NCBI GenBank assembly: GCA_964514615.1
Contig: CAZEUE010000001.1
Coordinates: 1 to 57,633 of the forward strand
Reading direction: 5' to 3'
Origin: an uncultured Bifidobacterium sp.
Lineage (GTDB): Bacteria > Actinomycetota > Thermoleophilia > Miltoncostaeales > Miltoncostaeaceae
Length of the DNA stretch: 57,633 bases
Every line of letters starts with the position of its first letter. Position 1 is the first letter of the stretch. Both the position numbers and the translations under genes were made by a program. The notes below the pieces were generated by a model. That model was not told where the DNA came from and did no database searches. It was given only the letters and a program-made list of their open reading frames with translations. Positions 392 to 5,489 of the stretch are shown here, piece after piece.

Positions 392-952
392 GTGGGGGCC
401 ATCAGCAGCAACGACCTGAAGAACGGATGGGTGCTCGACATCGATGGCGATCTCGTCAGCGTGGTGTCGTTCCAGCACGTGAAGCCCGGCAAGGGCGGGG
501 CGTTCGTGCGCACCAAGCTCAAGAGCCTGGCCAAGGGCACCGTGGTGGACAAGACCTTCCGCGCGGGCGAGAAGCTCGAGCGCGTCACCACTGAGACCAA
601 GAACATGCAGATGCTCTACGAGGACGGCGACGGCCTGGTGTTCATGGATTCCGAGACCTTCGAGCAGGTCACGGTGCCCCGGACATCGATCGAGTCGGAC
701 GACCTGATCGTCCCGAACTCCGAGGTGCAGGTGCTGTTCGTGCGCGAGGCCCCGTTCCGCGCCGAGCCGCCCGCGTCGGTGGAACTGCAGGTGGCGCAGA
801 CCGATCCGGGGGTGAAGGGTGACACGGTGTCGAACGTGACCAAGCCCGCCACCCTGGAGACCGGCGCGGTGGTGAACGTGCCGCTGTTCGTGAACGAGGG
901 CGACCGCATCAAGGTGGACACCCGCACCCGGGAGTACGTGAGCCGAGCATGA
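392..952 (+). CDS. efp: Elongation factor P
   Basis: GTG 392 lies 6 nt after AGGAG (381-385). The 186-aa product has the [14 protein letters not shown] loop and typical EF-P length. Confidence 0.95.
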
Positions 953-2694
953 GCACCATCCCCGCCGAGACCGCCATCGGGCTGGTCGACGTCACCCTGC
1001 GCGACCTTGGCACCCCGCCATGGGGGTCGCGCATCGCTCCCGACGACCTGGGCGCCGCCGCCGCGGCCCTTGCCCCGGTGGGCGCGCGGGTGATCGAGGC
1101 CATGGACCCCTCGGCCGCGCGCGCCTGCATGGACGGTCGCACGGAGAGCCCGCTCGATCGCCTGCGGGTGGTTGCGCGTCATGCCGCGGCCGCGCGCCTG
1201 GGCCTGGTGGTGACGGGCCGTACCCTGCTGGGCGACGTGCCCGTGGGCGCCGGGGTCGCCGAGAGGCTCATGGCCTCCGCGGCCGTGAGCGGGGCTGCCC
1301 GGGTGCGCGCCTACGACCCGCTGAATGACCCGGACGCCCTGCGCGGCGTGGCCGAGGGCGCCCGCGCTGCCGGGATGGACTTCGTGCCCACGCTCATGCT
1401 GGGGCCGGTCCCCGATGCCGCGGACGCGCGCTGGGTGGACGAGGCCCTGGCGCTGGCGCAGTTGCCGGGGGCGTCGTCGCTGTGCATCTCGGATCTCGGC
1501 GGCAACCTCACGCCCGTGGCCATGGGGCTTCTGGTCGGCAATGTGGTGGAGGCGTGCGCGATCCCCGTGGAGGTGTCGCTGCGGGCGACGGGTGGCCTTG
1601 CGTCGATGTCGGCGCTCAGCGCCGCCCTGGCCGGCGCCCACGCAATCCATGCGTCGGTGGGCGCGGCGGCGCTGGTGGCCGGGCGCCCGTCCGCCGAGGC
1701 CCTGTACGTGGCGCTGCACGGCGGCGACCGCGAGTTCGACGTCGACGTGCCGGCGCTGGAGGAGGCCGGACGGGTGATCTGGCCGCTGGTGGCCCAGGAG
1801 CGCGTGCGTCGCGCGGCCGAGCTGGCCGGTGGCCCGCAGCTGCAGCTGCCGCCCGACCTGGCCGCGGGACTCCTGGCGCGCCTGGCCCGCCAGGGCCTTG
1901 CGGGGCGGGCGCACGAGGCCGCCGACGAGTGCGCCGCGGTCTGCGCCGACCTGGGCGGGCTCACGTTCGCGCCGCCGGTGGGCGAGGAGATCGTGGCCCA
2001 GGCCGCCCAGCACCTGCTGGACGGCGTGCGGTGGAGGGAGACCACCCCTGCACTCGCCGATGTGGCGCTGGGCGCCCGCGGCCGCCTCCGCGGCGCGGTG
2101 TCCGACGATGCCCTGGCGGTGTCGCGCGGTGCCGGCGGCACGGGCGAGGCACCAGACCTGGCCGCCGTGCTGGCCGCGGCGCCCGCCGACGTGTCGGAGG
2201 AGGACGCGGTGGTGCTGGCCCAGTTCCCCGAGTCGGGGCGCAGGCTGGTGGACCGCCGCCGGTCGCTGGCCGCGGAGGAGGCCGGCGAGGAGGGCATGGC
2301 AATCGACCGGGGCCTCATCGAGACCCTCGTGCAGGTGGTGGAGGGGGCCGGCCAGTCGGAGGTGAGCGTGGAGATCGGCGGGGCGCGCGTGACGGTGCGT
2401 CCGGCGGTGGCGGCCACGGCGCCCCTGGGCGGGGCCCCGGCCGCCGGTGCCGATGACGGCGTCACGGTGGAGAGCCCCATGGTGGGCACCTTCTACGCCG
2501 CGCCGAACCCCGACGCCGATCCCTTCGTGAAGGTCGGTGACCGCGTGGTGCAGGGCCAGGTGCTGTGCATCATCGAAGCCATGAAGATCTTCAACGAGAT
2601 CACCGCCGAGCGGGCGGGCACGATCACGGAGATCGCGGTGGGCAACGCCGAGCCCGTGGAGTTCGGCCAGACGCTGTTCGTGCTGGCGCCGTGA
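949..2694 (+). CDS. accB: AccB-type biotin carboxyl carrier domain fused to an N-terminal OadA/PycB/5S-like carboxyltransferase region with apparently substituted active-site residues
   Basis: ATG 949 overlaps the efp stop (ATGA). The C-terminus [43 protein letters not shown]...EFGQTLFVL is an AccB signature. Residues about 10-450 are colinear with the OadA alpha carboxyltransferase ([44 protein letters not shown]-like [17 protein letters not shown]). Confidence 0.8.
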
Positions 2695-4055
2695 AGCTGC
2701 TCGTGGCCAACCGCGGCGAGATCGCCGTGCGCGTCATCCGCACCGCCCGCGAGCTGGGAATCCCCACCGTGGCCGTGTACTCCACCGCCGATGCCCAGAC
2801 CCCCGCGGTCGAGATGGCCGACGAGGCCGTATGCATCGGCCCCCCGCCGGCCCGCGAGTCGTACCTGGACATGCGCAACGTGATCGGCGCGGCCGAGGTG
2901 ACCGGGTGCGATGCCGTGCACCCGGGCTACGGGTTCCTGTCGGAGAACCCCGAGTTCGCCACCGAGTGCGCGCGCAACGGGATCAGGTTCGTGGGCCCCG
3001 ATCCCGGCGTGATGCGCCGGATGGGCGACAAGATCCAGGCCAAGGAGGCCGCCATCGAGGCCGGCCTGCCGGTGCTCGGCGGCTCGGAGGGAGGCGTCAC
3101 CGACGTCGCCGCGGCCCTGGCGTCGGCCGAGGAGGCCGGCTACCCCATCCTCCTCAAGGCATCCGCCGGCGGCGGCGGCCGCGGCATGCGGCGGGTGGAC
3201 AGCGCCGACGAGCTCGCGCGCGCGTTCGAGAGCGCGTCGCAGGAGGCCCTGGCGGCGTTCGGCGACGGCTCGATGTACGTCGAGAAGCTGCTCGAGGGCG
3301 CGCGCCATGTGGAGGTGCAGGTACTGGCCGACGGGCTGGGCGGCGTGCTGATCGTGGGCGACCGCGAGTGCTCGATCCAGCGCCGTCACCAGAAGGTGGT
3401 GGAGGAGGGCCCCGCGCCGAACCTGCTCGACTCCACCCGCGAGGGGCTGCATGCGGCCGCCGAGCGCGCCTGCCGTGCGTGGGGCTACAAGTCGGCCGGC
3501 ACCCTGGAGTTCCTCGTGGACGCCACGGGCGATTTCTACTTCCTCGAGCTGAACGCCCGGCTCCAGGTGGAGCACCCGGTCACGGAGCTCGTGAGCGGCA
3601 TGGACATCGTGGCCGAGCAACTGCGCATCGCCGACGGCCAGGTGCTCTCGCGCACCGGGCGAATCGAGGCCAACGGCCACGCCATCGAGTGCCGTGTCAA
3701 CGCCGAGGACCCGGCGTTCGACTTCCGCCCGGCAGCCGGGCGACTCGGGCTGTTCCAGCTGGCCGCGGGTCCCGGCGTGCGCGTGGACACCTTCTGCCGC
3801 ACCGGCGGCTACGTGCCCCCGTACTACGACTCGCTCATCGCCAAGCTGTGCGTGTGGGCCCCCGATCGTCCCCGTGCCGTCGCCCGCATGCGGCGCGCCC
3901 TGGGCGAAAGCGTGGTGGAGGGCGTTCCCACCACGTTGCCGTTGCTCGAGGAGATCTCGCGCGAGGAGGTCTTCGTGTCGGGGCGCTACACCACCTCGTA
4001 CCTGGTGGAGCGCGCGGAGTTCCTGCCGTCGCTGGGCGGCGGCGGGGGTCGGTGA
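2691..4055 (+). CDS. accC: Biotin carboxylase (acetyl-CoA carboxylase subunit)
   Basis: GTG 2691 overlaps the upstream stop (GTGA). The N-terminus is [23 protein letters not shown], with an ATP-grasp GGGGRGMR motif and [14 protein letters not shown]. The ORF-track start at 2565 would overlap the BCCP domain. Confidence 0.93.
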
Positions 4056-4471
4056 TGACCTCCGCGGTGTCACGCCGGCAGGCGCGCCGGCAGGCGGTGA
4101 TCCTGCTGTACCAGCAGGATGTGACCGGGCTTCCCGTTCCCGAGCTGGTGGAGAACGCCCTTCGTGCCGGTGACCACGCGGACGACCCGTTCACGCGGGA
4201 GGTGGTGGATGGCGTTCAGGCCGACCGCGAGGACCTGGACGCACGCATCAGCGCCGCCGCCACGGGGTGGAGCGCCGATCGCATCGCTCCGCTCGAACGC
4301 AACATCCTCCGGGTGGGGGCATGGGAGATCGCGCACGACCACGTGCCGGTGCCGGTGGCAATCGACGAGGCCGTGGAGATGGCGAAGAAGTGGTGCGGCT
4401 CGGAAGCCCCCGGGTTCGTCAACGGGGTGCTGGGCCGCCTGGCCCGCGACGCATCCGGCGAGGCCGCATGA
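4055..4471 (+). CDS. nusB: Transcription antitermination factor NusB
   Basis: ATG 4055 (or GTG 4052) overlaps the accC stop. The product is about 138 aa with RRQARRQAVILLYQ...ERNILRVGAWEI...AIDEAVEMAKKW...FVNGVLG. Confidence 0.9.
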   Translation: MTSAVSRRQARRQAVILLYQQDVTGLPVPELVENALRAGDHADDPFTREVVDGVQADREDLDARISAAATGWSADRIAPLERNILRVGAWEIAHDHVPVPVAIDEAVEMAKKWCGSEAPGFVNGVLGRLARDASGEAA

Positions 4472-4710: not shown

Positions 4711-5489
4711 GCTCCCCCGCGGTGCGTCTCGGCGCGTCGGATGCCCTCCTGCATCGCCGCATCTGCCGCCTCCAGGCGCACGCCGGGAGGCAGTTCCACG
4801 TGCACCTCGTCCGCGGCATCGAGCCATGCGGTCCCGGAGGCCAGGTTGGCCACCAGCACGTGGCCGCCGGTCGACCCATCACGCGCGGCGGCGTGCAGGT
4901 GCCATCCCGGCACCTCGAGCCCCGCGGCCCGGGCCGGGAAGCGAAAGCCCACGAGCACGGCCTCGATGGTGCCGGCCTCCCACTCCTCCTGCATGCGCAC
5001 CACCTGGTCGAGTGGCGGGTAGGGGGGCTCCTGCCGCGGCACGCTGCGCAGGCGCAAGCGGCGGAATGCGCCCTCCAGGCGCACGGCGGAAACCGCGGAC
5101 GGCGCCAGCGAGTCGAGGCGAGCGAGGAGTTCGTGGTGATCGAGCGCGCCGAGCACGTGGGGAGGCCCGGGCGCGAAGGGGGTGACCACGGCGAAGGGCG
5201 TGGCGGTGGCGTGGTCGACGGGGGAGAGCGTGCGGTCCACCCGGGCCACCCGGGCCATGCCGTCGACGATCACCAGCTCGCCGTCGAGGCCGGCCAGCGT
5301 GCCAAGCCCCAGGTCGCCGTGCGCCAGCACCTCGCCCACCGTCAGGTCGCCGTCATACCGGCCGTCCATGAGCGCGGCGATGGTGGACGACTGGAAAACG
5401 TGATGCGGCGCGGGGGCATCGCGCGCTGCGCCCGCACGGTCCTCGGACAACAGGTGGAGCGCGCGCACCAAGTCGGGGTCAATCGCCAT
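4707..5489 (-). CDS. budA: Alpha-acetolactate decarboxylase
   Basis: The motif HVFQSSTIAALMDGRYDGDLTVGEVLAHGDLGLGTLAGLDGELVIVDG is typical of AlsD/BudA. I chose the start at ATG 5489 (alternative 5510). The longer ORF-track N-terminus runs antisense into dxs. Confidence 0.85.
   Translation of the reverse strand: MAIDPDLVRALHLLSEDRAGAARDAPAPHHVFQSSTIAALMDGRYDGDLTVGEVLAHGDLGLGTLAGLDGELVIVDGMARVARVDRTLSPVDHATATPFAVVTPFAPGPPHVLGALDHHELLARLDSLAPSAVSAVRLEGAFRRLRLRSVPRQEPPYPPLDQVVRMQEEWEAGTIEAVLVGFRFPARAAGLEVPGWHLHAAARDGSTGGHVLVANLASGTAWLDAADEVHVELPPGVRLEAADAAMQEGIRRAETHRGGA

Follow-up and report, generated by a model that had tools for sequence, protein, structure and literature searches.

An AccB biotin carrier joined to a degenerate carboxyltransferase domain, probably retained as a dimeric structural module, in a lineage of Thermoleophilia

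We analysed a window of 57,633 nucleotides (contig CAZEUE010000001.1 of assembly GCA_964514615.1, deposited as an uncultured Bifidobacterium sp. and placed by GTDB in the Thermoleophilia of the Actinomycetota) and concentrated on a gene of 581 codons lying between efp and accC. The C-terminus of its product is an apparently complete AccB, which is the biotin carboxyl carrier protein (BCCP) of acetyl-CoA carboxylase (ACC); it is preceded by 447 residues related to a carboxyltransferase (CT) in which the metal site has been lost. We consider that the pseudo-carboxyltransferase attached to this AccB has probably been kept as a dimeric structural module. In the usual picture of heteromeric ACC the BCCP is a small, free protein. 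AccB, PycB and the two-subunit pyruvate carboxylase are all known; our literature search found no paper describing the CT-AccB fusion, including the form with an apparently dead CT. The passages of Lombard & Moreira 2011 (PMC3199775) that we read do not mention the fusion.

The N-terminal part is homologous to the CT subunits of pyruvate carboxylase (PC) and its relatives. The NCBIfam model PRK09282 (PycB) matched aa 9-579 colinearly with model positions 3-589 of 591 (E 4e-54), and Pfam HMGL-like (PF00682) matched aa 10-276 on model positions 2-259 of 260 (E 2.4e-7), which is a marginal pass (30.9 bits against a cut-off of 29). The best match in the PDB was 5KS8, the beta subunit of a two-subunit pyruvate carboxylase (E 6e-35); the oxaloacetate decarboxylase subunit OadA 2NX9 and E. 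coli BCCP 4HR7_B are the other close relatives of solved structure. An earlier sequence-only reading of this DNA had described aa ∼10-450 as colinear with these enzymes, and this part of it stands on the PRK09282 match, the HMGL-like match and the CT fold described below; the significance of the PRK09282 match also disposes of the possibility that the N-terminal region has no detectable CT homology. The PYC_OADA-like segment of that reading did not survive as a Pfam match. PYC_OADA (PF02436) gave no hit at E ≤ 1, either in the hmmscan of the fusion or in a search of the whole genome, though in the alignments to NCBIfam models and PDB chains this region runs colinearly with PycB and OadA. The fusion scored below the cut-offs of all the curated CT models (PRK09282, 184 against 402 bits; TIGR01108, 157 against 756.5; PRK14040, 159 against 892).

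The substitutions at the active site were read residue by residue in HMMER alignments to 5KS8_C and 2NX9_A, and in an alignment of the family. In the HMMER alignments RDGHQS is replaced by RDLGTP, IKDM by ISDL and HLHAHATSG by EVSLRATGG; in the family alignment LLRGQN has become VVTGRT and TPTSQ has become PPVGE, the former T-P-x-S-Q loop now being P342-P343-V344-G345-E346. Asp19 is the sole metal ligand retained, the carbamylated Lys being replaced by S181 and the two His by S210 and R212. Among the substrate- and biotin-handling residues, Q is replaced by T22, the R of LLRGQN by T89, and T, S and Q of the loop by P342, G345 and E346, respectively; R18 is kept. Arg18, Asp19 and Asp182 are the only remnants of the classical active site. 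Each of the substitutions named in the sequence-only reading (RDLGTP, ISDLGG and VEVSLR in place of the CT motifs) was recovered in these alignments, and its impression that the metal site looks lost was confirmed. Its description of the protein as neither a convincing active PycB nor an ordinary ∼160-aa AccB agrees with the PycB score, far sub-threshold, and with the replaced ligands. An ordinary PycA/PycB pair is ruled out at this locus by the lost metal ligands; that description does fit the intact relatives.

We then compared the variability of the replaced positions with that of the whole domain. Among 33 non-redundant family members the mean entropy of the thirteen replaced catalytic positions is 1.46 and that of the whole domain 1.13; in live homologues (n=17 sequences) the same positions average 0.08 against 0.89 for the domain. 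Within the family S, Q, A or L occurs at the first His, R, Q or V at the second, Y, P, A or H at the catalytic Thr, and T, G, A or S at the substrate Arg. R18, D19 and D182 are invariant or nearly so, and 30 family-invariant positions bear residues that are seldom used by live enzymes. Since family members differ from one another at the replaced catalytic positions, no new chemistry has been fixed at the old site, and we rejected a new conserved chemistry there. The variability of the old site speaks against an enzyme put to a new use, and it makes a conserved ligand pocket less likely.

The fold has been kept in spite of these losses, as judged from structure prediction. An AlphaFold2 model of the fusion built on a 34-sequence alignment had a predicted local distance difference test (pLDDT) score of 88 and a predicted template-modelling (TM) score of 0.75. 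Disorder was confined to two linkers, and the strands and helices of the barrel alternated with pLDDT mostly above 90. Foldseek matched the model to 5KS8_D with E 3e-34, and gave TM scores of 0.81 to 2NX9_A and 0.77 to 1RQB, the transcarboxylase 5S subunit (normalised to target length, probability 1.00). The TIM barrel and the helical C-terminal subdomain are thus both predicted to be retained, and the comparison with OadA, 5S and PC structures that the sequence-only reading had proposed returned a CT fold. We also predicted the complex of two copies of aa 1-447, along with three controls, and scored it by the median interaction prediction score from aligned errors (ipSAE); the mark used for this score is reached by 20 of 30 proteins solved as pairs and by 1 of 23 solved as single chains. 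The pseudo-CT was predicted to form a symmetric homodimer with a median ipSAE of 0.85 (best of the three controls, 0.00). The runs shared at least 89% of their contacts, the partner pLDDT was at least 91, and 49 interface residues fell within aa 185-297.

The domain is under purifying selection. All 581 codons are matched gap-free in eleven genus-level relatives, and an uninterrupted frame of ∼580-590 aa is found in 45 database clusters. The Nei-Gojobori ratio of non-synonymous to synonymous substitutions (dN/dS; medians among 12 genus-level sequences) is 0.097 for the CT-like aa 1-447, comparable to those of accC (0.086) and efp (0.132); the AccB part has a ratio of 0.157. From the gap-free alignment and this ratio we concluded that the domain is neither a decaying relic nor a mis-called frame.

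The C-terminal part is an AccB by all the criteria that we applied to its biotinyl domain. The AccB/BCCP equivalog model TIGR00531 scored 122.9 bits (cut-off 115.2) over aa 483-579, on model positions 57-154, and Pfam Biotin_lipoyl matched aa 506-579 with E 3e-21. The alignment to E. coli BCCP 4HR7_B extends over aa 485-579 (E 1.4e-22) and includes the ACC-specific thumb, the loop of which aligns gap-free with FYRTPSPDAKAF. The motif E543-A544-M545-K546 is present and K546 is invariant in 34 aligned homologues. The textbook AccB-type biotinyl domain recognised in the sequence-only reading is thereby upheld. The N-terminal domain of E. coli BCCP is the part that contacts biotin carboxylase. In the fusion this domain gave a weak local match only (aa 449-493 to 4HR7_B residues 18-63, 3.8 bits), and AlphaFold2 placed a helix at 454-467 and strands at 472-483 with low confidence (pLDDT ∼56-65). 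Live relatives matched TIGR00531 over positions 1-155 of 156, N-terminal domain included.

We searched the assembly of this small genome of an aquatic member of the Thermoleophilia (206 contigs, 91% complete) for other components of the enzyme. No stand-alone accB was found in this 91%-complete genome, either by tblastn with the AccB part or by a search with Pfam Biotin_lipoyl; the other Biotin_lipoyl matches are E2 subunits of the pyruvate and 2-oxoglutarate dehydrogenase type, GcvH and the alpha subunit of an acyl-CoA carboxylase. The latter, on contig C17, and the accC of the window carry the only two biotin carboxylase (BC) domains. Adjacent accD and accA genes lie on contig C101, AccA passing its model (395 bits, cut-off 357) and AccD falling just short (313.8, cut-off 317.45). 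The genome search that the sequence-only reading had called for thus returned accA and accD and no free accB, and as no other AccB-type carrier was found, the fusion is the only candidate carrier for AccC and AccD/AccA. Nor did this 91%-complete genome yield a pyruvate carboxylase or other PYC_OADA protein, a phosphoenolpyruvate (PEP) carboxylase (PF00311) or a GTP-dependent PEP carboxykinase (GTP-PEPCK; PF00821). Malic enzyme is present on contig C76. A PccB-type carboxyltransferase is split over two contig ends (C17:3-974 and C202:1071-1622), the BC-BCCP alpha subunit following the C17 part, and gives the genome a second route, of the acyl-CoA carboxylase type, to carboxylated CoA esters.

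Next, we looked for the same architecture in related genomes. In a search of 301 Thermoleophilia genomes the CT-like domain was found in 246, and 14 loci from seven families were fetched, 12 of which have the full efp-fusion-accC order (in one the contig ends before efp, and one has no accC match downstream). Three families (f2, f4 and f6) keep TLRDGHQS, LLRGQN, CIKDM, LHCHY and VTP(M/T)SQ, apart from one f4 copy with Pro for His; since the catalytic motifs are kept, these fusions look catalytically competent. The dead forms in the class belong to the family of the window (f1), the most diverged form among those seen, and to f3, f9 and f10, in which the first motif reads RLLSQEP (RLL type; labelled Gaiellales or Gaiellaceae in public records). 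The PRK09282 score is 368 bits for this Gaiellales type. The fused copy is the only TIGR00531-class BCCP in five good genomes (f1, f2, f3, f4 and f6), all five of which have AccA. No AccB-class BCCP occurs in the class families that lack the fusion, so that in the class sample AccB was not seen apart from the CT domain.

Across the phylum, a profile search of 401 genomes showed full-length fusions (550-750 bits) in many further families, and we fetched 16 loci outside the class, sampling 13 families. The accC gene lies directly downstream in 16/16 and efp upstream in 9/16. Over the 30 loci fetched from the Actinomycetota, the efp-fusion-accC order is conserved in 26. Intact motifs together with an AccB-type carrier were present in 11 of the 16, two are classical PycB (f14), and three belong to a separate degenerate lineage (f25 and f33). 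By family, RDAHQS, LLRGQN, IKDM, HxH and TPxSQ are intact in 10 of 13, the exceptions being f14, f25 and f33. When named genomes were scanned, the intact fusion turned up in Eggerthellales and in members of the Bacillota, among them Syntrophomonas, Peptococcaceae, Thermincola, Desulfitobacterium and Desulfosporosinus fructosivorans. The cut-offs of PRK09282 (834-880 bits) and of full-length TIGR00531 (143-167 bits) are both passed by intact fusions, and the classical PycB of f14 passes PRK09282 only, having no TIGR00531 match and no thumb loop. The survey that had been suggested along with the first description of the gene therefore shows that sister families and Bacillota have an intact fusion in this slot. 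Among the degenerate forms outside the class, f25 (loci L062 and L068) has RDIFQNT and S-x-S for H-x-H, and is carried by 27 of 28 sampled f25 genomes; f33 (L061) has GDANQS and IMD.

Several local irregularities were seen in the fetched loci. Two intact f2 fusions, L034 and L042, have EMMKM for EAMKM around the biotinyl lysine and SKWVATFY for SPMVGTFY. In L031 (G007:C1:1744000-1756000, ∼4778-5190), from a single-contig genome of the same family as the window, the biotinyl domain is in a frame different from that of the CT-like part and the AccB N-domain; this break is a frameshift or an assembly error. In L035 (G193:C9) accC was matched as two overlapping pieces in different frames, and accA of that genome (G193:C3:148096-149003) has an internal TGA. 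These breaks are probably assembly errors.

The dead form appears to be one clade within the Thermoleophilia. In a maximum-likelihood tree of the CT part (LG+G4) the f1 and RLL types group with a Shimodaira-Hasegawa-like approximate likelihood ratio test (SH-aLRT) support of 100 and are nested among live Thermoleophilia; the grouping was retained, again with SH-aLRT 100, under C20-PMSF with the other degenerate clade left out. The two types have the derived residues L20, P24, R246, L304, G345 and H355 in common, and P124 is present in most f1 members. The stem branches are long (0.99 changes per site for the dead clade and a further 1.11 for the f1 type), and long-branch attraction and an unusual amino-acid composition are caveats on the single clade. 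Independent inactivation of the f1 and Gaiellales types was not supported, given one clade under two models and the shared derived residues. The f25/f33 lineage is a phylogenetically separate degeneration. On these comparisons the dead state is derived from an intact CT-AccB fusion in the same efp-fusion-accC slot, and catalysis appears to have been lost at least twice independently, the domain being kept at full length under purifying selection.

The fusion combines features of two known systems. With the E. coli-type AccB (TIGR00531; 4HR7 chain B and 1BDO) its C-terminal 130 residues share the thumb, the EAMK lysine, the Ala/Pro linker and, as predicted with low confidence, an N-terminal helix and hairpin; the position directly before accC, the efp...nusB neighbourhood and the presence of AccD and AccA in the genome are shared as well. 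The E. coli protein, however, is 156 aa and stands alone, whereas the fusion has 447 additional N-terminal residues of CT fold. With PycB of Methylobacillus flagellatus (5KS8), OadA (2NX9) and 5S (1RQB) it shares the fold, the order of CT and then carrier, full-length colinearity, a separate biotin carboxylase gene and, by prediction, the CT-type homodimer, but the Lys, His and His ligands and the substrate and biotin residues present in those enzymes are lost in it. Its carrier is of the AccB type with a thumb, unlike that of the classical PycB of f14. In the two-subunit enzyme 5KS8 the CT dimers of the beta subunit form the core, and the BT-like domain, together with the Ala-rich C-terminal helix of the alpha subunit, holds alpha in place (PMC5059739). 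Bacterial PC alpha subunits are ∼471 aa long, the extra residues being this helix, which inserts into the BT-like domain (PMC5059739). PycB gives a four-stranded sheet to the BT-like domain; the fusion has the AccB N-domain in that place, and the AccC here is 454 aa. Because of this shorter AccC and the replacement of the PycB strands by the AccB N-domain, a contact of the AccB type with AccC would be expected.

The intact CT-AccB fusions (f2, f4 and f6, those of other Actinomycetota, Eggerthellales and Bacillota) have the same architecture, synteny and AccB-type carrier; of the live forms in the tree, those of f2, f4 and f6 lie closest to the dead clade. They keep RDAHQS, LLRGQN, IKDM, HxH and TPxSQ, and are 24-28% identical to the window's protein over the CT. 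The Gaiellales RLL type is the sister of the window's clade, with which it shares the derived residues and the loss of the Lys and His ligands; it is 31-33% identical to the window's domain and scores 368 bits, against 184, with the PycB model. In the RLL type the Asp is also lost, and the arginine of LRG is kept.

From homology, residue loss, fold, selection, synteny, phylogeny and the finding of just one such carrier in the assembly we infer the following. The gene product would be the AccB of a heteromeric ACC with a 447-residue pseudoenzyme fixed to its N-terminus, its last 130 residues providing a BC-binding N-domain, a flexible linker and a thumbed biotinyl domain with Lys546. Biotin on this lysine would be carboxylated by the neighbouring, translationally coupled AccC, and the AccD/AccA encoded on contig C101 would transfer the carboxyl group to acetyl-CoA. 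The N-terminal domain would have come from a working pyruvate-type CT of the PycB/OadA/5S family, already fused to AccB in an ancestor common to many Actinomycetota and Bacillota; such an intact fusion with AccC would resemble a two-subunit pyruvate carboxylase whose carrier doubles as the only AccB. Loss of the metal site, and of the residues that handle substrate and biotin, would date to the ancestor of this Thermoleophilia clade. The pseudo-CT would act as the dimeric core of the complex, pairing two carriers and positioning AccC through the AccB N-domains, and this core would not have been deletable once catalysis became dispensable.

Several points weigh against this proposal. Conservation in the predicted dimer interface is only marginally above that elsewhere in the domain (entropy 0.95 at the interface and 1.15 outside it; permutation P ∼0.05-0.06), and the dimer score may reflect likeness to the solved CT dimers of PC, OadA and 5S. 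As the CT dimers of these relatives have been solved, the prediction indicates that the interface looks preserved and does not amount to self-binding. The scaffold role is a deduction from retention, selection and a predicted dimer. Retention of R18, D19 and D182, along with the 30 family-specific invariant positions, would be compatible with a ligand-binding role. A second route to malonyl-CoA exists, through the acyl-CoA carboxylase on C17. Finally, the enzymes that might replace the lost anaplerotic activity, namely another pyruvate carboxylase, a PEP carboxylase or a GTP-PEPCK, were looked for and not found in the 91%-complete genome, which does have a malic enzyme.

We weighed the structural module against three other explanations. 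The main rival is that the non-catalytic barrel is a regulatory or sensor domain, which would bind a metabolite (pyruvate, oxaloacetate or an acyl-CoA) or park the (carboxy)biotinyl domain, and so tune ACC to central-carbon status. Purifying selection that is strong across the whole domain and not just at the predicted interface would suit such a role, as would the kept R18, D19 and D182, the 30 family-invariant positions rare in live enzymes and the conserved RRRSL at aa 436-440. However, the pyruvate- and biotin-binding residues of live CTs have been replaced along with the metal ligands, and the majority differ between members, unlike a conserved ligand pocket; we therefore regard a sensor as unlikely, although deserving of attention. 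The sequence-only reading had offered a choice between a pseudo-enzyme scaffold and a carboxyltransferase with different chemistry. The variable catalytic positions, the dN/dS of 0.10 and the predicted homodimer favour the scaffold. An enzyme that still performs carboxyl transfer or decarboxylation, by a different and possibly metal-independent chemistry or on another substrate, could account for the failure to find another pyruvate carboxylase, a PEP carboxylase or a GTP-PEPCK in the 91%-complete genome, and it would agree with a dN/dS as low as in working enzymes and with the invariance of Asp19 and Asp182. This is difficult to reconcile with the replacement of thirteen positions that are near-invariant in live enzymes (entropy 0.08) by residues more variable than average, with the loss of even Asp19 in the sister RLL group, and with the far sub-threshold scores of all the curated CT models. 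We consider a different chemistry quite improbable.

A functionless relic or an annotation artefact, the real product being a free AccB from an internal start near Met449, seems the least credible of all. Shine-Dalgarno-like GGAGGAGG and GAGGAGGGC (purine-rich, window 2272-2295) do precede the ATG at 2293 (Met449), and the long stems of the clade (0.99 and 1.11 changes per site) would record a past burst of change. Against it are the dN/dS of 0.097 within the genus, the ∼447-residue frame that is intact in all sampled relatives across several families, and the confident model of the domain. Close relatives have Ile, Leu, His, Pro or Ala at position 449. As a conserved feature, an internal start for free AccB was rejected, Met449 not being conserved even within the genus. 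The structural module thus remains the explanation that we prefer.

At the locus, efp, the fusion, accC and nusB follow one another on the + strand and are coupled by overlaps (Table 1). The fusion ATG overlaps the efp stop in ATGA at 949-952, the accC GTG overlaps the fusion stop in GTGA at 2691-2694, and in GTGATGA at 4052-4058 the nusB start (GTG 4052 or ATG 4055) overlaps the accC stop. The efp-accB-accC-nusB context with overlapping stop and start codons on both sides of the fusion, as first noted, could thus be read directly from the DNA. The G+C content of the region is 72-78%, and long spurious open reading frames are common at such G+C; the 581-aa frame, however, shows strong homology from end to end. 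The accC product scored 612.7 bits with the ACC biotin carboxylase model NF006367 (cut-off 597). At the end of the last pseudo-CT helix, directly ahead of the AccB N-domain, an RRRSL motif (window 2254-2268) is kept in 47 of the 49 family sequences shown and is absent from intact fusions. Among the public sequencing runs that contain the sequence no RNA run is listed; the DNA runs are from sediment, seawater and aquatic metagenomes, some of them possibly the source sample.

Table 1. Positions in the window of the fusion gene, its parts and the adjoining genes
Feature	Position	Strand	Basis
efp (elongation factor P)	392..952	+	Pfam EFP_N, EFP, Elong-fact-P_C
Fusion gene, 581 aa: pseudo-carboxyltransferase and complete AccB	949..2694	+	Pfam, NCBIfam and PDB alignments
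Pseudo-CT TIM barrel, aa 9-280	973..1788	+	HMGL-like match, alignments to 5KS8_C and 2NX9_A, AlphaFold2
Former active-site positions in the pseudo-CT barrel: D19, G21, T22, P23, T89, R91, T92, S181, D182, L183, S210, R212			
Predicted homodimer interface stretch, aa 185-297	1501..1839	+	All 49 interface residues of the two-copy complex prediction
Helical C-terminal subdomain of the pseudo-CT, aa 281-447	1789..2289	+	Colinear with OadA/PycB to ∼aa 395; AlphaFold2 helices H283-H444
Putative AccB N-terminal domain, aa 452-485	2302..2403	+	Weak local match to E. coli BCCP; AlphaFold2 helix and strands
Flexible Ala/Pro/Gly-rich linker, aa 486-503	2404..2457	+	pLDDT <50 at aa 487-502; length and sequence variable in the alignment
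AccB-type biotinyl domain, aa 504-580; thumb from Y516; biotinyl Lys546 in EAMK (codon 2584-2586)	2458..2688	+	
accC, biotin carboxylase, 454 aa	2691..4055	+	Biotin_carb_N, CPSase_L_D2, Biotin_carb_C
nusB	4052..4471	+	Pfam NusB, E 3.5e-28

The only AccB found is welded to a pyruvate-type CT here, as well as in a large part of the Actinomycetota and in some Bacillota, and in forms with an intact CT a single carrier may work in anaplerosis as well as in fatty-acid synthesis. We suggest, as a tentative idea that may well need revision, that the intact relatives have a single BC-BCCP hub built on the CT dimer, which feeds the pyruvate CT in cis for anaplerosis and AccD/AccA in trans for fatty-acid synthesis; in the lineage of the window the pyruvate branch would have been switched off and the core would have been irremovable. 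On that idea the ACC holoenzyme of this organism would have an architecture unlike that of E. coli, with a pseudoenzyme dimer at its centre. The dead clade is a natural experiment, a clear instance of a pseudoenzyme kept for a structural or regulatory job. These proteins are named 'oxaloacetate decarboxylase alpha subunit' (JGI) or plain 'AccB' (NCBI) in the databases, and under the JGI name a sodium pump or a pyruvate carboxylase would falsely enter the metabolic models of these actinobacteria, which are abundant in water and soil.

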